From the UHGV virus genome UHGV-0020692: 51,752 nt of DNA, one strand, 5' to 3'. Source of the stretch: a virus. A program made the position numbers and the translations under genes. This document shows, piece by piece, positions 353 through 44,822 of this stretch. Positions within the stretch are counted from its first letter, which is position 1; every line of letters begins with the position of its first letter. Under the pieces are notes generated by a model. That model saw only the letters and a list, made by a program, of their open reading frames with translations. It was not told the DNA's origin and did not search any database.

Positions 353-1384
353 GATGGCGGGCTGCCATACATGGGGCGGGACAAATTCAGCGCCAGCATG
401 TTCGCCCCATACTGTTGCGGCATCAAAATTCAGCACAATTTGGTGGTGGGCTTGTCCTTCAGCAACTGCAACAGGAGGTCGCTGTGTGGTTTTCGAGAAA
501 CAACCTGAGGTGATGCCGCCGGAAGTTGTTCCCAAAAGGTAGTCAACTTGTCCAGTTAGATTGCGTCCACTGTCAGGCGACCATGCACCAGGTACTTTTC
601 CACTACCCAGCCCCCAATTTCGGAAAAACTGCCCGCTTAGGTTGGGCGTGTACAATCCTGTGGGGTTAGCGGCGTCCGGCCGCCATTTGCCCAGGTTGGC
701 CGCTTTTGTCTTGCTGTCGGCATCCCAGGGGAGCAGCATCCCCTCAAAGCCACCGGCATCATAGACCTGTTCCAGTTGTGGCCAGTCCGCGAACTCAACA
801 AAATCCCCGTTCGCCCAACAGTGGTTGGGGGGGAGCGTCGTGCTGCGCCAGTACCGGGGCACCCCGATCCATGAGGGGTCTAGCGTTGCCGCACTCAATA
901 TCCCGGAAGAGTCGATAAAAACTGTCTCCCCGTCAGGCTGGACTACCCCGGGGCTAGACGACGTGGCCAGAGGTGCGCCATACGCCAGAGTAGCCGCCAG
1001 CCAGGTGCCGGACTCGTCCCCCACGGGATTGACCGCGGGGGCGCTGGGCACGTCTGGCCCGCTGCTTTTCTGGGCGATGTATTCCTTGCCGTCACTGCCC
1101 AGGACGTGGGCCCCCACCAGATAGTCAAGAGACGCGCTCCACGGGTAGAGGCTGCCGGACTGCAGAAAGAACAGATGCTGCCCGATCAGGTTGAACACGC
1201 CGTTAAAGTCCTGGCGCGAGGGGGCTATCCCCCCTGCCGTCAGGGGGAACCCGGTAATGGCCGGGAACCCGGCCTGATACGAGAAAGCCCCGCTGCCGCT
1301 GGGCGTCGTGGCCGGTATGGAATTAAGGTCAGCCGCGTACCCCAGCACATTGGCGAGCAGGTCTGGGCTAGAGGGAATAGGCAT
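329..1384 (-). CDS. Tail fibre protein: constant N-terminal part (1384..631) plus variable receptor-binding tip (609..329)
   Basis: ATG at 1384 (MPIPSSPDLL). Gly/Ser-rich fibre-like sequence. The inverted-repeat arm sits inside the FFRNWG codons. Confidence 0.7.
   Translation of the reverse strand: MPIPSSPDLLANVLGYAADLNSIPATTPSGSGAFSYQAGFPAITGFPLTAGGIAPSRQDFNGVFNLIGQHLFFLQSGSLYPWSASLDYLVGAHVLGSDGKEYIAQKSSGPDVPSAPAVNPVGDESGTWLAATLAYGAPLATSSSPGVVQPDGETVFIDSSGILSAATLDPSWIGVPRYWRSTTLPPNHCWANGDFVEFADWPQLEQVYDAGGFEGMLLPWDADSKTKAANLGKWRPDAANPTGLYTPNLSGQFFRNWGLGSGKVPGAWSPDSGRNLTGQVDYLLGTTSGGITSGCFSKTTQRPPVAVAEGQAHHQIVLNFDAATVWGEHAGAEFVPPHVWQPAILYLGRPA
610..630. repeat. Right arm of the exact 21-bp inverted repeat
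   Basis: Reverse complement of 57..77. Confidence 0.8.
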
Positions 1385-2093
1385 CTTGCGGTCCTCCGGG
1401 GGCGAAATTGCCCTGGTCAAAGGGTTGCAGGCCAGAGCCGTCAAAGCCGAACGTCTCGGCGCGGTTGACCTCGTACAGATCGAAGCCCACGCCCGCGGGC
1501 TTGGGCGGTACGTCATCACGAGCGATCAGCGCACGCTCGAACGGCTGTAAATAGAAGCCGAAGAAAAACCGGATGCGCATGGTGCCCACATGGATCACGC
1601 AGACCGTGCCGCGGGAGCCGTACATCGTATGCATGATGCGGTTAAGGCTGGCCAGCGTCCCGTCACTGACATTGATGGCGGCCTTGAGGAAGATCAGCTG
1701 CCGGTAGGCCTCGTCCGTCAGGCGGTAGTAGGACGTGGCGTCCGAGCTCCAGAACGGCGCCTGGTCGAACGGCTCCAGACCGGAGCCGTCAAAGCCGAAC
1801 GCCGTGTTGGTGCCAGCCAGCTGGATGTCGCGGCTGATGCCCACGATCTGGCCCCAGCAGTCCAGGCCCCAGCCTGTGGCCGTGCGCGGATCGAAGACCT
1901 CCGTCAAAAATTCCTGGATGTCCCAAAAAGGATCTATCTGACCTTCCAGACCAGCCAGCAACGCGCACAGACGGGGGGAATTGTCGTACTGTGAGATGAC
2001 CGTGGACGGCCAGAGCTGCCCCCGGCGGATATCCGGCAGCTCCCGAATATCGCCTGCCGCCCGAAAATCAATGATATTCCAGCGGATAGCCAT
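1368..2093 (-). CDS. Phage tail/baseplate-associated protein (DUF2612-like)
   Basis: ATG at 2093 (MAIRWNIIDF). Lies between two fibre genes. Contains repeated FGFDGSGL(E/Q)PFDQ motifs. Confidence 0.45.
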   Translation of the reverse strand: MAIRWNIIDFRAAGDIRELPDIRRGQLWPSTVISQYDNSPRLCALLAGLEGQIDPFWDIQEFLTEVFDPRTATGWGLDCWGQIVGISRDIQLAGTNTAFGFDGSGLEPFDQAPFWSSDATSYYRLTDEAYRQLIFLKAAINVSDGTLASLNRIMHTMYGSRGTVCVIHVGTMRIRFFFGFYLQPFERALIARDDVPPKPAGVGFDLYEVNRAETFGFDGSGLQPFDQGNFAPGGPQDAYSL

Positions 2094-19571: not shown

Positions 19572-19583
19572 AGTGTGCTCCTC

Positions 19584-20987
19584 CTAGGAAATGTCGATGT
19601 TCTTGAGGTTCTGGAAAGCCCCGTCGAATTTGACGGGAGCGGAGTCCTCAGCCAGCGGTTTGAAACCGGACACCTGCTGCCGCAGCAGGATGTCCACCAT
19701 ACCGCGCCAGGCGCTCTTGTCGTACTTACTGGGGTCAATCCCCTTGGTCTTGAGGGTGTGCCCATAGACGGCGGTGGCGCTGTCAAAGCTCATGGGCTCC
19801 AGACTGCCCACCAGGGGACGCACCGCATTCACCGCAGAAAACAGCTCCTGCATATGCTGGCGCGTCTCCTTCACGGCCTGCGCTTTGATGGCGGCGGCAT
19901 CCATCCCCATCGGCTGCTTGCGGCTGCCCTTCGGCTTGGCGTCACCAGCAAACTGATCTTCGCCGTGGTGTTCTTCAAATTTCTGCATCCCTTCCGATTC
20001 ATGCTCACGGTCAAGCTTGCCGGGCTCTTCTTTTTCTTTGCGCTCGCCGAATTTCACCCCCTCAGCGAAGGCCTTCTGGAACTCTTCGTTTTCGGCATCG
20101 ATACCGCACTTGTCCATGGCGTCCTTGTAGGGATTATCGGCAACGGGCGTCTTGTCGCCAGTCGCCTTGGAATACGCGAGGTCCGTCAGGGCATCATTGA
20201 GGCGTTTGAGCTGCTCGGGCTCAAGCTTTCCGGCCAGTTCGCCCACGATTTCGCGGACAGCCTTGGCCTTGTCCTCGTCTTCCATAATGTCCACGACCTC
20301 ACCGGTGTTGGGATCGACCTTGTGCAGGTCGATAATCGCCTGCGCCAGATCCACCTCCTTCTGCTCGATTTCGGGGTCGCCGTCTTTGACGTGCTGCTTG
20401 TTCTCGGCCATAGGTGTCCCTCCTTCTGGCTGTTTGATGTTCTTGTCCGCGACAATCACGTCCGGGCCTGCCCGCCCTTCTTCCACCAGGGCGACGTGAT
20501 TGCCGCGTATGTTCCGCATGACAAAGTCGTAGCTGATCCCTTCGTGGACACCGGGCGTCCAGTCGGGATCATAACGGTACGCGCAGGAGAGCTCCCGATA
20601 TGCGCCGCTCTCCACCGCATCAATGGCTTTTTTGTCCCAGATGGTCAGCGGCGCATCCACATAAGGCGCATTCCAGGCCACTTCCGTGCCGACACTCCCT
20701 ACACGGGTCAGCTTTTGAGGATCGTCCGCGCTATCCACATGGTGCTCGATATGCAGCGGCAGTCCTGCCCATGTCGTCAGGCTTTTTTGCAGTTCGTCCG
20801 GGTCACGGAAGCCGTAGTAGATTTTTTCCGGGTCAAGCCCCCGTTGCTGCCAACCGGGAATTTCGCGTCCATAATAGGGGTTGACTACGGCCTTTGTGAT
20901 ATGACTTGCCCCCACATGCATGTAACCGTTTTCATCCACACTGCGGACGCTCGGCTGGGCGTCGAAGGTCATGTTTTTTTCACGCAT
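19584..20987 (-). CDS. Prohead protease / scaffold protein (DUF2213-like N-terminus, acidic coiled-coil C-terminus)
   Basis: RBS GGAGAG. N-terminal 180 aa conserved, followed by a Glu/Lys-rich scaffold-like region. Confidence 0.55.
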
Positions 20988-20991
20988 GTTT

Positions 20992-22809
20992 TCACTCTCC
21001 GAAAATGGGTATAATTGATCTATAGGTGCAATTGCAGTTGCAACTTACGGTTTTTTCTGCTATATACCATCCTAAAGCCGTTTGGAGGTTATATACATGT
21101 CCCGTAAAATCGACAGCGCGGTTATCGACTACGCGTGCGATGCGGTACGTAGAGGCGTCTTGCTGAAAACGCTTGCGCAAGAGCTCCACGTCAGCACCGA
21201 TGCGTTGAGCCGTCACATTCGGCAAAGAGGTGTCGAAATCCCCAAAACGGGCAAAAAGCCGTTCAAATATTCCCTCCCGAAAAAGGAAATCGTAGCCATG
21301 TACCAAGCTGGCGCAAGTGAAAAGGCTATTGCCGAAAAATTTGGATGTAGCCGTACCATCATTCGCCCCATCCTTGTGCATGCCGGGATTCCCTTGCGCA
21401 GCAAGAGCGAGGCTAGCAAACTCCGCTACCGAAATACGACCAAAGAATACCGGCAAGCGCTCACGGCAGCGGCGCATGAAGCCGTGAAAGGCAGTATCAC
21501 TCGCAAACAAGCCCTTGCGAGAGCCATTTCCAGAGAGCAGAGCGGAAATGAATCCCACCTCGGAGACGGAGAAGCCGAGATCGCACAGCGACTTGATGAG
21601 CTTGGCATTGTCTATGTTCGGCAAAAGGCTGTTGACATCTATAATGTCGATTTTGCCGTCGGTTCCGTCGCCGTGGAAGTCACTTGTGGAACCGTCAAAT
21701 ACCGTGGGGGCAACACCAAGGAGAACAAGCGCATTAAAAAGCTCCTCGAATGTGGGTACAACCCCGTTTGCATCGAGTTCAGTCAAAAAGAGGCTATCCT
21801 GCGCTGTCTTGACGATGTTGTCTCCCACATTCAGGAGGCCCGCCGCTGTCCACCCTTTGGTCGTGAGTATTGGGTGATTCGGTGTCAACGTAAGGATTCC
21901 ACCGTCATCCGTAACGATTTGGGCCAATTTTCCAGCATACCAACGCCTGTACAATTTTTCTGCAAACGGAATGCCGTGCAGCTTTGACCCTCCGGGGAAG
22001 CAGTTCACCAGCTCCCCGGGCAGCACTTTTTTGCCTGCGGCGCTGTCGTACAGCCCCTCGTCCAGCTTGAACCGCTTGCCGTTCATCTGCATATGCGCTT
22101 TGCGGCTGCTCTTGGTTCCCGGCACATGCACCCAGATGCCTTCCGTGATGCCCAACTGTTTGTTCTCTGTGCGCTTGATAGCTTCACATGCTTTGTTGTT
22201 TTGATCCCGGGCTATGGTTTTGGCGCGGTTTCTGGTTATTTCGTACCGTCGGGCCAGCTCCTCTTCCAAAAACGCCACATCCCGCCCCATGCTGACGGAT
22301 CGTTGCACCAGCCCCGTCACCTCATCGAAATATTGCTGCGGGATGGATTTTATCAGGGAGACGTTTTCCGCTATCAACGCTTGGACTGTGTCGTTCATCA
22401 CTCGCCCGGGATCCATTTTGACCGTCATCCCGGCAGCCTTGAACGCCGCACCGTAGGCACTGAGCGTGTGGCGCTGCGCACTGCCCACAAAGTCCCGCGC
22501 GATACGTTCCGCCGACTTTCGCCACCGCCGCTGCCAGTATGCTTGCAGCCGGCGCAATGCCCAAGCCAACCAGTTGGATGGAGTTTCAGAAGGTGTTTCC
22601 GTCGTTCCGCCACCGGTTCCGGGCATGGCGTCTTGTGTGATTCTGGTCTCATTCTTCCGGTAGACGGCACGCAACCACCAGACAGTGGAGCGTTGCATCT
22701 CGTCGATCAGACGCTCAAGTTTTTTCCGGTATGCCGCTTCCACACCGGCATTGGCGTAAACCGGCCACAGGAGCTTATCCATAGACGGCGCCTGCCTTGT
22801 CCATGTCAT
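20992..22809 (-). CDS. Mu F-like / SPP1 gp7-like head morphogenesis protein interrupted by an intein
   Basis: RBS AGGAGGGA then ATG at 22809. Phage_Mu_F-like region ...PGELVN | intein | [14 protein letters not shown]. Confidence 0.7.
21038..21066 (+). promoter_or_regulatory. Sigma70-like promoter TTGCAA-17-TATATA for the antisense nested gene
   Basis: -35 at 21038..21043 and -10 at 21061..21066. An RBS GGAGG lies 8 nt before the ATG at 21097. Confidence 0.5.
21097..21987 (+). CDS. HTH plus DUF559/Vsr-like (PD-(D/E)XK) endonuclease-domain protein, encoded antisense inside the intein
   Basis: Strong RBS. HTH segment [21 protein letters not shown]-terminus [35 protein letters not shown]...Y......[19 protein letters not shown] fits the DUF559 pattern. 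Confidence 0.6.
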   Translation: MSRKIDSAVIDYACDAVRRGVLLKTLAQELHVSTDALSRHIRQRGVEIPKTGKKPFKYSLPKKEIVAMYQAGASEKAIAEKFGCSRTIIRPILVHAGIPLRSKSEASKLRYRNTTKEYRQALTAAAHEAVKGSITRKQALARAISREQSGNESHLGDGEAEIAQRLDELGIVYVRQKAVDIYNVDFAVGSVAVEVTCGTVKYRGGNTKENKRIKKLLECGYNPVCIEFSQKEAILRCLDDVVSHIQEARRCPPFGREYWVIRCQRKDSTVIRNDLGQFSSIPTPVQFFCKRNAVQL

Positions 22810-24322
22810 CCAGAGGCGCTCCCTCCTGGCGCACCAAAGCATCCGGCATGGGGGGGAGCTCTCCAACATCAATATGGCTGTACCCGCTATGCTGATCATC
22901 AGCCAGGGATTGGCGCACCTCCTCTACGGAGAGCGTCCCCCTGTCCATGTAGACCGCAGCCGTATCCGCCTTAACCTTCTGAATCTCAGCCTGGAGTTTT
23001 TTGTCCTCCTCCCCGAGTTTGTTGAAGGTGAAAGAAATTGTTGGGTCAATGCGCCCCGTCAAATGAAGTTGCAGGCAGTCCAACACCGTTTTGAGGGGGG
23101 CGAGCATCATTTTCTGCTGCCGTGTCGCGATATGGTCGTAGTAGTTCCTAATGTCGCTTTCCCCCGTAGCATTGAAACCGGATGGGGAAATGCCCAGCAA
23201 CTTGACCGCAGGGGTCCGGTTGACAGCCGCCAAAAACTCCAAGGCCTGACGCACAATGTCTGTCACCCCTGAAAGCGGTGTCTCCAGCTTCACAACATCC
23301 TCGGCTTCTTTGTCCACAACGAGCACTCCGTCATTGCTCATGTTCTGGATCATGTACTTGATACGGCAATCCAGGTTCGATGCCTCTTGGGGGCCCAGCT
23401 TGCCGAGGCTGTCAAACATGTTCGTTTTGAAAACGGTCATGGAAAATTTTTTCAACAGCCGGTTTTCAGCCGCACGGCACTCCTGGAAGTGCAGGACGTA
23501 ATCCCAAAGGATCTGGGCTTGCGGGATGCCCAGGAAGTTGTAGGCAGGTTTGAGCAGGATAGGGACCTCATTGCCGACGACGCGCAGCAGGCGCGAGGCA
23601 TGGACCCGCTGCCCCAGCACCCACCATTCCGTAGGTGCGTAGTAGTTCGGCTGGAGAGGATTCAGCGAGTTGTAATTCCCGGGGAAGCAGTTGACCGGAT
23701 CAATGACGACAAAACGTAAATTCTTTTCCTGCCCCAGCTCGCCAGAGTTCGGGGAAATATCCAAGGGGTCCCGCAAAGTGTCGCCAGTGGCCCCGGTATC
23801 GATAAAGAGGAACGCGCCCCCCTCGTAGCCCGCCAGCTCAACGGCCTCCGCGAAATGTTCCTTTACCCGCATCCTGGACATAAGCCCCGTCAATTCCGCC
23901 AGCAGGTTGTTATCAGCCCCCTGCACAGCGTCTCCTTCACGTTGCAGCGTGATCCATTCACGGGTCATGTCATCGGCCACCGTGGAAATGCAGGCGCGCA
24001 CAAGCCCATTCTGGGCGATGTTCTGCAATGCCCCGTAGCCCATGAACTGCGGGAAGACCCCCATCCCCATTTGCAGCGTATGCTGCAACAGGGAATAGAC
24101 GCCGGTGTCGGCTAGTGCGCTATCCAAGGCAAGCCGGACCTCCTCTTTGCATCCCAGCGTCCGGGGTGGTGCGTACCGCTGCCGCACGTCCTCGATCGTC
24201 AGAGAGGCGGAAGGCGTGGCCGCCGCAATGGCAGGGAAATGCGTCATTTCAGCCAGCAGCTCTGGAGAAACAACGGCCCCCCGGTTGGTGCCCCGAAGCC
24301 GCGATTTGCTTTTTTTGCTCAC
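22775..24322 (-). CDS. Portal protein (DUF935 / Mu gp29-like)
   Basis: 515 aa. GTG start overlapping the terminase stop. Follows the large terminase. Confidence 0.8.
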   Translation of the reverse strand: MSKKSKSRLRGTNRGAVVSPELLAEMTHFPAIAAATPSASLTIEDVRQRYAPPRTLGCKEEVRLALDSALADTGVYSLLQHTLQMGMGVFPQFMGYGALQNIAQNGLVRACISTVADDMTREWITLQREGDAVQGADNNLLAELTGLMSRMRVKEHFAEAVELAGYEGGAFLFIDTGATGDTLRDPLDISPNSGELGQEKNLRFVVIDPVNCFPGNYNSLNPLQPNYYAPTEWWVLGQRVHASRLLRVVGNEVPILLKPAYNFLGIPQAQILWDYVLHFQECRAAENRLLKKFSMTVFKTNMFDSLGKLGPQEASNLDCRIKYMIQNMSNDGVLVVDKEAEDVVKLETPLSGVTDIVRQALEFLAAVNRTPAVKLLGISPSGFNATGESDIRNYYDHIATRQQKMMLAPLKTVLDCLQLHLTGRIDPTISFTFNKLGEEDKKLQAEIQKVKADTAAVYMDRGTLSVEEVRQSLADDQHSGYSHIDVGELPPMPDALVRQEGAPLDDMDKAGAVYG

Positions 24323-25788
24323 ATCATCCTCCCGAACATGGCGCCGCGCCGCAGGATACTGGGATCCACAGTCAGGGTTTTGGCCGTCTGCATGTCACGC
24401 AGAGCCTGAGTTGTCGCATCCACCTGGTCATCATGGGCAGCGGCCGGGAACTGGGTCAGCTCGGCCACATACTCAGAGACCCAACCACATACGGATGGAT
24501 GCGGGATGTGGACGTTACCGGCCTCAAAGTACGTTGTGACCGCATGAGCCCGCGCAACCTTGCTGCCATCGGGCTCGACAGGGATGATTCCCGGCACTGT
24601 ATTCCGCAGGCAATCGATGACCGCCGGGCCATTGGCCTTGTCTTCCACGAGCTTGCGCTGGGCCTGCGGCCATTTTCGGGCCAAAGCCTGGAATGCTGCC
24701 AATGTCGCTGTAAAACCCATACGTCCGCGCACCTGGTCGAGAAGATAAAAATTCGCTCCGGCTTTCCCCCACACTTGTCCCACGACGAAGTCGGAATCAT
24801 CCCCGTCCTTGAAGGTCATGTCCCAACTGATGAGCATCCGCTCGAAGTTCTGCGGCAAATCTTTCGGCAGCCAGAAGCGCAACCACTCGGCTTTGAAGAT
24901 GCCCCCACCATCGGGGGTGGGATGCTGCTGATAGAGCGCCTCCCAGTCCCGGGAACCGATGGCCGCCCGGATGGCGTGCAGCTGCTCCAGCGGGTAGCGT
25001 TCTGGGTGCAGGGCTTCGCCCGCCTTGCGGTGCGTCTCGTCCTGCTCGGCGATGGCCGGGAAATTCACCACGCGCCATTGATCCCCCTCTCCCATGCGCG
25101 CTGCCTCCAGGAGCCTCCCGGCCAGGTCATCCATATGCCAGCGCGTCTGGATGACGATGATGCCGCCCCCCGGCGCCAGCCGCGTGTAAAGCGTGGAGGT
25201 GTACCAGTCCCACACCCGGTTGCGGATGGTAGGAGAATCCGCCTCGGCCCGGTCTTTGATGGGGTCGTCGATAAGGATGACGTCCCCTCCCATACCGGTG
25301 ATGCCGCCGCCCACGCCCGCCGAGCGGTAGACGCCCCGATGTCCGACGACCTCAAAAAGATCAGAGTTGCGCATGTAGGCCCCTGATGCCACGGTGCGGA
25401 TATTTTTCCCGTAAAGGCGCGTCCCGGGAAAAATCTCAATGTAGGCCTCATCATCGATGACACGCTGCACGTCGCGGTTCATCCTGCTCGCAAGATCAGC
25501 GCTGTAGCTGGTGGCGATGATGGACAAGTCAGGATAGCGCCCCAGGGCATAGGCCGGAAAACGGCGGGAGGCTATCTCGCTTTTGCCGTGACGGGGAGGC
25601 ATGGTCAGCAGCAGACGTGGCGACGCTTTACGCTGCACAGCAGCCAAAAATGCATCCAGTTCGGCACAAACCTCTTCGTGGACCCATCCCATCAAATAAC
25701 CGGGGCATGTCGCATAGACGAACCCCACGAGAGACTGCCGGGCGAGCTCTATTTGCAACGCATGGAGCTGGCTCTGTGTCAGTTGCAT
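24319..25788 (-). CDS. Terminase large subunit
   Basis: 489 aa. Walker-like GKS and a nuclease C-terminal region. RBS GGGGGGGA. Confidence 0.85.
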   Translation of the reverse strand: MQLTQSQLHALQIELARQSLVGFVYATCPGYLMGWVHEEVCAELDAFLAAVQRKASPRLLLTMPPRHGKSEIASRRFPAYALGRYPDLSIIATSYSADLASRMNRDVQRVIDDEAYIEIFPGTRLYGKNIRTVASGAYMRNSDLFEVVGHRGVYRSAGVGGGITGMGGDVILIDDPIKDRAEADSPTIRNRVWDWYTSTLYTRLAPGGGIIVIQTRWHMDDLAGRLLEAARMGEGDQWRVVNFPAIAEQDETHRKAGEALHPERYPLEQLHAIRAAIGSRDWEALYQQHPTPDGGGIFKAEWLRFWLPKDLPQNFERMLISWDMTFKDGDDSDFVVGQVWGKAGANFYLLDQVRGRMGFTATLAAFQALARKWPQAQRKLVEDKANGPAVIDCLRNTVPGIIPVEPDGSKVARAHAVTTYFEAGNVHIPHPSVCGWVSEYVAELTQFPAAAHDDQVDATTQALRDMQTAKTLTVDPSILRRGAMFGRMM

Positions 25789-44745: not shown

Positions 44746-44822
44746 CCAAAGCGAAACGCCCCGTCCTGGGGCGTCGTCGTGGCGTGGCGGCCACGGCCTG
44801 ATGAGCAGCCAAGAAGTAGATA

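Follow-up and report, generated by a model that had tools for sequence, protein, structure and literature searches.

A putative intein with an antisense homing-endonuclease gene in MuF, a head-morphogenesis gene from an uncultured phage

The virus genome UHGV-0020692 (51,752 nucleotides (nt); this whole stretch is referred to below as the window) includes on its minus strand a gene for a head-morphogenesis precursor of the MuF (SPP1 gp7) type, 605 codons and a stop long (20992..22809). The gene contains an in-frame insert (21037..22002, minus strand; CFPGG...TVSCN) with the characteristics of a class-1 intein of 322 amino acids (aa). Largely the same DNA includes, on the plus strand, a putative homing-endonuclease gene (HEG) of 296 codons and a stop (21097..21987). 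Here we describe the two coding frames, their relatives in other phages and the signs of selection and transfer that they bear, and weigh the explanations that might account for the arrangement.

The interrupted MuF gene and its intein

A first-pass annotation of the locus, made from the letters of the DNA alone, proposed that the minus-strand gene begins with a Phage_Mu_F region and is then interrupted, directly before a Cys, by an intein of about 322 aa; both proposals stand. The translation is exact, and Phage_Mu_F is recognized over the N-terminal 269 aa (PF04233; E 1.1e-8, 36.3 bits against a cut-off of 29.6), with a weaker match to the SPP1 gp7 model. Membership of this protein family is indicated by the PF04233 match above the gathering score together with the position of the gene after a portal gene. 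The true start is likely the ATG at 22782 (Met10), since a database protein with 98% identity, P0001, is 596 residues long. The N-extein (22003..22809, minus strand; 269 aa counted from 22809) ends in ...VLPGELVN and, in the AlphaFold2 (AF2) model, has pLDDT (predicted local distance difference test) values of 80–94 across aa 10–230. The C-extein with its stop occupies 20992..21036 of the same strand.

The limits of the insert are set by alleles which do not carry it. It comprises exactly 322 codons ending in TVSCN, with CNCTYRS coming next, and the alignment with the intein-less proteins P0015 and P0024 defines a spliced junction that would read PGELVN↓CNCTYRS (the arrow marks the junction). 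P0015, 81% identical to the N-extein, reads ...VLPGELCN↓CNCTYRSVIPAF, the second part of which also matches the C-extein, and P0024 reads ...PGECIN↓CCCTYRPIVPGFGE. The reconstituted junction, which the first-pass annotation had likened to the C-terminal motif of the F family, lies in the NC(R)C motif of the MuF/SPP1-gp7 protein, and the two natural uninterrupted alleles read ...N↓C(N/C)CTYR... there. The intein-less site of L018 reads ctgccgggggaactgtgcaat↓tgcaattgcacgtaccgg, and relatives carry the insert without exception at (PGExx/HP)N↓C(R)C.

The residues expected to carry out splicing are strongly conserved. Invariant in 26 insert-bearing homologues are Cys1, the T, N, H and P of the block B motif TPNHP, the terminal Asn, the +1 Cys and the Cys that follows. 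Cys1 (C270; 22000..22002, minus strand) would be the N-terminal splicing nucleophile of block A. Block B, with its T..H pair, lies at 21850..21891 (minus strand), where T309, N311, H312, P313, G319 and W320 are invariant or nearly so. Block F (GHVYNLQT; 21079..21102, minus strand) aligns in the profile alignment with block F of the Mja KlbA intein, GHIYDL. Block G and the junction V-S-C-N↓C are found at 21034..21048 (minus strand) and include the invariant terminal Asn (N591; 21037..21039) and +1 Cys (C592; 21034..21036). These observations bear out the Hint blocks B, F and G and the +1 Cys that had been recognized by eye, as well as the remark that the penultimate residue is Cys and not His. 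Among 51 distinct members of the intein family, the penultimate residue is Ser in 23, His in 21, Cys in three, Arg in two and Lys and Gln in one each; the +1 residue is Cys in all 51. On these counts the penultimate Cys appears as a minor variant within the family and is not exceptional. Inteins that lack a penultimate His are known to splice, the feature being common and not strictly defining.

Comparisons beyond the family lead to solved inteins. A profile of the intein family retrieves 18 chains from the PDB, all of them inteins or bacterial intein-like (BIL) domains, with Mja KlbA the best match (E 1.7e-6). The intein relatives in eight of ten sampled host open reading frames (ORFs) match PF14890 at E 1e-7 to 6e-5. 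The top Foldseek matches are also inteins: PhoVMA, the RecA and RadA mini-inteins (these two at probability 0.99–1.0), DnaB, gp41-1 and DnaX.

Some of the results are less favourable to an intein. The penultimate His of block G is absent in the window. Searches with the single intein sequence remain under the curated cut-offs, both for PF14890 (E 0.012–0.036, 14–16 bits against 35.8) and for TIGR01445 (E 0.0038, 18.2 bits against 24.5), so that the intein profile search suggested in the first-pass annotation fails for the individual sequence and succeeds at the level of the family profile. Foldseek E-values are 1.3e-3 or worse, a weakness explained by the use of the whole 605-residue model as the query. 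The missing His and the low profile scores would accord with a reading in which no protein splicing occurs and the insert is an intron-like RNA element, or a tolerated insertion that stays in MuF or is just cleaved off. With just 14 aa between the insertion and the end of MuF, C-terminal cleavage by itself might be tolerated, and there is a precedent in ShiLan, where an out-of-frame HNH enzyme lies in a non-intein insert proposed to be a tolerated insertion (PMC11855218). We nevertheless judge this very improbable. An Rfam search which included group I and II introns gave no match at E<=1 over 20800..22300, and the frame is open across the whole insert in all relatives. The invariance of Cys1, the TxxH motif, the terminal Asn and the +1 Cys across highly diverged members would be hard to explain without splicing chemistry, and the family profile, as noted above, matches solved inteins. 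The identification of the insert as a class-1 intein in the MuF gene is supported because four kinds of evidence converge on it: alleles without the intein, catalytic residues that do not vary, hits of the family profile to solved inteins and Foldseek hits to mini-inteins.

The splicing domain looks to be limited to the first ~62 and last ~35 intein residues. Over the intervening ~215 aa of the intein frame (MuF residues 338–554), pLDDT is mostly <50 in the AF2 model built from 26 sequences, no LAGLIDADG family matched at E<=1 in Pfam or NCBIfam, and no other domain was found there. The faint in-frame LAGLIDADG-like stretches reported in the first-pass annotation therefore find no family match; the stretch that had been flagged is the antisense translation of the plus-strand HEG, a gene which that annotation overlooked.

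A putative homing-endonuclease gene on the opposite strand

The plus-strand ORF that encloses the HEG has 301 codons (21082..21987) and lies almost exactly within the intein. A called protein, P0042, is 100% identical to the HEG product, which matches HTH_11, HTH_23 and DUF559 (PF04480; 21.2 bits against a gathering score of 20.6) in Pfam. Its N-terminal part comprises two helix-turn-helix (HTH) modules (aa 7–43 and 62–95; 21115..21381, plus strand), which are indicated by HTH_11, HTH_23, HTH_7 and HTH_58, by HTH matches in the PDB and by the AF2 model, where they form three-helix units (H7-18/23-30/34-43 and H62-70/75-82/86-95). These are followed by a Vsr-like/DUF559 nuclease domain (aa ~155–250; 21559..21846, plus strand) with invariant N183, D185 and E194 (YNVDF...VAVEV).

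The closest relative of solved structure is the homing endonuclease I-Bth0305I. Its catalytic domain (3r3p) is matched by the HEG family profile at E 3.2e-6. The AlphaFold model of the HEG product, obtained with a mean pLDDT of 86 from 24 sequences, a depth equal to that behind the intein-frame model, consists of the two three-helix units, a helical linker, the alpha/beta nuclease domain and a C-terminal beta-hairpin, and its sole Foldseek match at E<=1e-3 is 3r3p_B (E 8.3e-5, probability 1.0, target TM 0.69). DUF559, the 3r3p profile match and Foldseek thus concur on a Vsr-like catalytic fold, and the product has separate N-terminal DNA-binding modules in the form of two HTH units instead of NUMODs. 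The E and D of the EDxHD signature are conserved (E159/E194 and D185).

The HEG is also provided with plausible translation signals. A Shine-Dalgarno sequence (GGAGG; 21085..21089, plus strand) lies 7 nt upstream of the ATG at 21097 and is conserved in relatives, the string TTGGAGGTTATAnACATG or a close variant being present in 13 of 13 loci. Both signals arise by reverse complementation of the codons His-Val-Tyr-Asn-Leu-Gln in block F: the Shine-Dalgarno sequence arises opposite Asn-Leu-Gln and the ATG opposite His. Codon choice in 50 distinct relatives follows this geometry. The block F His codon is CAT in 46 and CAC, which gives GTG on the other strand, in the remaining four; Leu is encoded by CTC in 40. 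The Val, Tyr, Thr and Gly codons next to them are almost saturated at their synonymous sites, and in intein codons 7–20 downstream of the block F His, where the DNA leading up to the HEG start lies, such sites are unconstrained. The constraint on the His and Leu codons is of the sort to be expected if selection acted on a ribosome-binding site and a start codon in antisense. A subgroup of relatives (L012 (2112..; the contig of P0027), P0026, P0029 and P0030) carries HVYTM(E/Q)T at block F and a penultimate Lys (..AKN↓CRC). These members keep the antisense ORF and the ATG, without GGAGG upstream.

Two aspects of the gene speak against an expressed and active enzyme. The general-base residue H213 of I-Bth0305I aligns with Arg203, and D222 falls in an insertion and has no aligned equivalent, so that nuclease activity, as judged from these alignments, is not assured. 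Moreover, no conserved promoter for the HEG was found within the cassette formed by intein and HEG. Full EDxHD membership was accordingly rejected, the His and the final Asp not being conserved; the homologue of Gordonia phage Malisha retains W-H where the general-base His is expected. A sigma-70 candidate picked out by eye (TTGCAA at 21038..21043 and TATATA at 21061..21066, 17 nt apart) was likewise dropped, as it fails the promoter-search rule.

The gene has been missed elsewhere. In the records inspected (Aaphi23, Klebsiella KpTDp1, Edwardsiella MSW-3, Vibrio PvVp04 and Gordonia Vivi2 among them) the 296-aa HEG is unannotated and the coding sequence (CDS) of the head protein is alone annotated over it. 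Gene callers retain just the MuF ORF, which is the longer. tblastn reveals the same unannotated ORF beneath head-protein annotations in many Salmonella Jerseyvirus records.

Two reading frames in one register

The HEG and intein frames are codon-aligned: second codon positions face each other, and first positions face third ones. Intein residue i faces HEG residue 303-i, and the HEG spans intein residues 7–302 of 322, blocks B and F included. This register is identical in 13 of the 13 loci first analysed. In it, a stop on one strand corresponds to a TTA, CTA or TCA codon on the other, so both frames stay open simply by avoiding these three codons. The nuclease motifs DIYNVD and VAVEV read IDIIDV and DFHGD in the intein frame, and TPNHP of block B reads WVIRC, which is conserved, in the HEG protein. 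Which of the frames is better conserved depends on the region: among 11 highly diverged loci, identity over intein aa 63–287 is higher in the HEG frame (e.g., 0.55 against 0.27) and over aa 18–62 in the intein frame (0.63 against 0.44).

How far an open antisense frame is informative depends on base composition. Given the local codon usage, the probability that the frame is open is ~0.4 in the window, because TTA, CTA and TCA are rare at 60% GC, and this counts against reading much into the window's own dual ORF. Long plus-strand ORFs (293–479 aa) also occur at 19575..21014, 22093..22974 and 24115..25386, antisense to the DUF2213 gene, the MuF N-extein/portal region and the terminase genes, respectively. 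Long antisense ORFs of this kind are typical of 60% GC DNA, and an open antisense frame alone is therefore no evidence here. Nor does the comparison with L004, the contig of P0002, help: the few substitutions are evenly spread over both frames and too few to inform. We therefore rejected any claim of significance from the window alone. Significance rests on the AT-rich relatives, for which the corresponding probabilities are 3e-6 (Aaphi23), 1e-7 (Vibrio PvVp04), 9e-5 (Klebsiella KpTDp1) and 1e-4 (L010); the log10 values summed over 13 loci amount to -28.6. AT-rich phages keep both frames open by strong avoidance of TTA, CTA and TCA.

A larger sample was obtained by scanning IMG/VR, where 329 stretches encode HEG relatives; the counts out of 80 given here refer to the best 80 of these 329. 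The aligned antisense frame is free of stops in 80/80, and the other two antisense frames contain 3–46 stops. The antisense ORF matches the N- and C-terminal Hint parts of the window's intein in 78/80, the remaining two being cut by contig ends. There is no sign of a split intein or fractured gene, the host frame being a single ORF without a stop in the window and likewise in 80/80 relatives. Eleven of the 80 loci (L046, L054, L067, L068, L071, L083, L084, L086, L087, L089 and L098) have one stop within the endonuclease match and a fully open intein frame. These are apparently decaying endonucleases inside intact inteins, as would be expected late in a homing cycle.

One might suppose instead that the intein is of the ordinary sort, with an in-frame LAGLIDADG endonuclease that has degenerated, and that the plus-strand ORF is a chance frame of GC-rich DNA. 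Long antisense ORFs are indeed common in the 60% GC window, and the ~0.4 given above offers no obstacle. Yet the middle of the intein frame holds no recognizable domain and is predicted to be unstructured. It is the plus-strand product that matches HTH modules, DUF559 and I-Bth0305I, in sequence and in fold, and that is better conserved than the intein frame; in AT-rich phages the frame is open against odds of 1e-5 to 1e-7, and a free-standing homologue exists (see below). This explanation is refuted as far as sequence analysis goes, and we accord it almost no credence.

The sequence evidence argues instead that both overlapping frames are under selection. The in-frame linker of ~215 aa would then exist because the plus strand of the same DNA encodes the HEG, and the locus offers a clear natural example of dual coding in antisense over a long stretch (~890 nt) of bacteriophage DNA. 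The cassette can also be viewed as a compact intein that tolerates a linker of this length. We advance more tentatively, at a little under even odds, the idea that intein and HEG form one obligately interlocked sense/antisense unit in which block F doubles as ribosome-binding site and start codon. Some 60–100 codons may then encode functional parts of both proteins, with the Hint N-subdomain opposite the nuclease C-terminus and beta-hairpin, and the lock may be conserved from phages of Actinobacteria to phages of Proteobacteria. If so, neither partner could be lost or recoded without harm to the other, and such a mutual lock would account for the occurrence of this HEG clade almost always in one register.

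Mobility, proposed cycle and relation to known systems

The clearest signature of transfer comes from L004. Its intein is 96.6% identical to that of the window at the nt level, as against 62% for the N-extein. Along the alignment, 57–60 of every 60 positions are identical from 22008 down to 21049 and 30–48 of 60 on either side. The nearest extein relative, L018 (78% nt and 81% aa identity), has no intein. GC content is 52% in the cassette and ~38% (own count) in the 45-nt C-extein, as against 60% for the window, which is consistent with a foreign origin; the low GC of the C-extein further suggests a short co-conversion tract. A near-identical cassette in divergent exteins points to recent homing. 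Between distant pairs the cassette diverges at about two-thirds of the extein rate (own tally), and slow evolution under a double constraint thus cannot explain the near identity with L004.

Relatives are widely distributed. Full-length HEG homologues antisense to a single head-protein or MuF CDS are present in Aaphi23, Aggregatibacter S1249, Vibrio PvVp04 and 1.113.A, Klebsiella Jedunavirus phages, Edwardsiella MSW-3 and Gordonia Vivi2 and Malisha. Matches of lesser length were obtained in 62 Salmonella records (mostly Jerseyvirus), 15 Pseudomonas phages, E. coli phage fEg-Eco06 and Mycobacterium phage Sejanus, and tblastn also gives matches in Gordonia phage Affeca and others. Of the ten sampled host ORFs, which come from IMG/VR, six match MuF (one of them fused to an ADP-ribosyltransferase), one matches VG15, one an alpha/beta hydrolase and two the intein model alone. 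In L083 (1661..4147, minus strand) the same intein and antisense HEG lie in a MuF that ends in a fused ADP-ribosyltransferase toxin domain (PF03496). The same PF03496 fusion, with intein and antisense HEG, is seen in the Salmonella phage records H42 and H48, and some Jerseyvirus records label the gene NAD+--asparagine ADP-ribosyltransferase.

A free-standing form is found in Acinetobacter phage vB_AbaM_IME285 (L015, MH853786.1). The HEG homologue (CDS 455..1348, 35% identity) lies tail-to-tail with an intein-less MuF gene (CDS 1342..2055, ...PMCKCRAKLII...), their 3' ends overlapping by a few bases, and stops abound in each of its three antisense frames. Three states thus coexist: the site may be empty, empty beside a free-standing HEG in convergent orientation, or filled by the fused cassette. 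Together they make the idea that a free-standing HEG invaded a mini-intein directly testable. In another phage, L008 (1..432; the contig of P0005), the neighbouring TerL is 843 residues long and has a faint match to Hom_end (PF05204), which suggests a second, canonical intein.

The main rival to an active homing cassette is a relic, in which the intein still splices, as MuF needs it, the HEG is inactive, and the cassette persists by vertical descent and ordinary recombination. The replacement of the general-base His by Arg203, the unaligned last Asp of EDxHD, the failure to find a conserved promoter in the cassette and the 11 of 80 relatives with a stop inside the HEG match and an open intein frame would all accord with this. 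In the window itself, by contrast, the ORF is intact and the Shine-Dalgarno sequence and ATG are present; D185 and E194 are invariant, and the model is confident. The gap in identity between cassette and N-extein, the sharp boundaries at the intein edges and the empty site of the nearest extein relative also tell against vertical persistence. We regard the relic as unlikely, though less so than any of the other rivals considered.

The best explanation, to which we assign a probability of about 0.75, is that the MuF intein, of class 1, has its homing endonuclease encoded in antisense. The locus would be a composite selfish element lodged in MuF, in a phage that is uncultured and whose head module is Aaphi23-like. 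The 322-aa intein would be translated within the MuF precursor and then remove itself by canonical protein splicing: an N-S acyl shift at Cys1, trans-thioesterification by the +1 Cys, cyclisation of the terminal Asn and an S-N shift. This would restore the conserved C-terminal motif in a spliced MuF of ~274–283 aa, the ~215 residues between the splicing halves acting as a read-through linker with no predicted fold. The endonuclease would presumably cut intein-less MuF alleles at (PGExx/HP)N↓C(R)C during co-infection, and repair from the intein-bearing allele would copy the whole cassette. We infer the splicing activity, the transcription and translation of the antisense gene and the site-specific cleavage from the sequence comparisons. 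In this scheme the HEG product is a candidate nuclease with site specificity for a head gene that is conserved among phages.

The surroundings are those of an ordinary head module, in the order TerL, portal (PF06381, immediately upstream of MuF), MuF and a DUF2213/Pa193_gp24 gene. A Megablast search with 20900..22900 gave no match in the genome collections for phages and E. coli, so there is no close cultured relative. Farther away, a full-length type II hammerhead ribozyme lies at 44749..44814 on the plus strand (RF02276; 76.4 bits against a gathering score of 37, E 2.7e-14); it is the sole match in an Rfam scan of the whole window, in which tRNA and tmRNA genes were not found.

Known systems resemble the window's element to different degrees. 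I-Bth0305I (PDB 3R3P), known from biochemistry and structure, is an EDxHD homing endonuclease of Bacillus phage 0305phi8-36 (Taylor et al. 2011, PMC3239194). As in the HEG product, its N-terminal DNA-binding modules precede a C-terminal Vsr-like domain, and its Mg-binding D196 and E206 correspond to D185 and E194. It differs in being encoded by a group I intron on the sense strand and in having NUMOD-type modules, as against two HTH modules and an antisense position here. The 'fractured genes' of Dassa et al. (2009, PMC2677866), who defined the endonuclease family concerned, have split inteins whose halves are parted by a free-standing Vsr-like endonuclease gene. They share with the window an endonuclease of the same superfamily at the endonuclease site of a phage intein and a proposed origin in which a free-standing HEG invaded a mini-intein. 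In those systems two ORFs make up the host gene and the products are trans-spliced, whereas the host ORF of the window is continuous, because the HEG lies in the one antisense register that can be stop-free. An antisense arrangement is mentioned neither in this paper nor in that on I-Bth0305I (PMC2677866; PMC3239194).

Overlapping frames are also found in another intein. The splicing domain and the endonuclease of the cyanobacterial DnaX intein overlap as do those of the window, and the endonuclease frame is again the more constrained in the overlap; there it is a LAGLIDADG enzyme in a bacterial replication gene, as against an antisense Vsr-like one. The separate reading frame of the DnaX endonuclease was reportedly described by Gorbalenya in 1998. 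It is frame +2 of the same strand (Phillips et al., bioRxiv 10.64898/2026.09.14.751524).

MuF inteins as such have been annotated before. The record of E. coli phage fEg-Eco06 includes a 'minor head protein with inserted intein'. InBase has an entry for the Aaphi23 MupF intein. An 'intein-containing capsid morphogenesis protein' has been annotated in Jerseyvirus (PMC8425127). The annotated inteins of Jerseyvirus and fEg-Eco06 share host protein family and insertion site with the window, and their annotations are silent on the antisense HEG.

The closest counterparts are the contiguous inteins with an anti-sense VSR-like homing endonuclease (HEN) described in actinobacteriophages by Gosselin, Arsenault & Gogarten (bioRxiv 10.1101/2025.01.02.630785). 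These too are unsplit, with a Vsr-like ORF on the opposite strand that matches 3R3P (there by HHpred) and a structureless in-frame middle; they also occur in minor capsid (SPP1 gp7/MuF) genes, and near-identical inteins are found in divergent exteins. The window likewise has a continuous intein ORF with an opposite-strand HEN inside it, and the antisense product is predicted to fold where the in-frame middle is not. It differs in that its phage is uncultured, with 60% GC and an Aaphi23-like head module, and the same cassette is found here in phages of Haemophilus/Aggregatibacter, Salmonella (Jerseyvirus), Klebsiella, Vibrio, Edwardsiella, Pseudomonas and E. coli. The arrangement has so far been described only in that 2025 preprint, for actinobacteriophages, and the window element is of the same kind. 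To this the present analysis adds its spread to phages of many Gram-negative hosts, the fixed codon-aligned register with its three-codon rule, the near-complete overlap that includes blocks B and F, the start signals derived from block F and the free-standing convergent relative.

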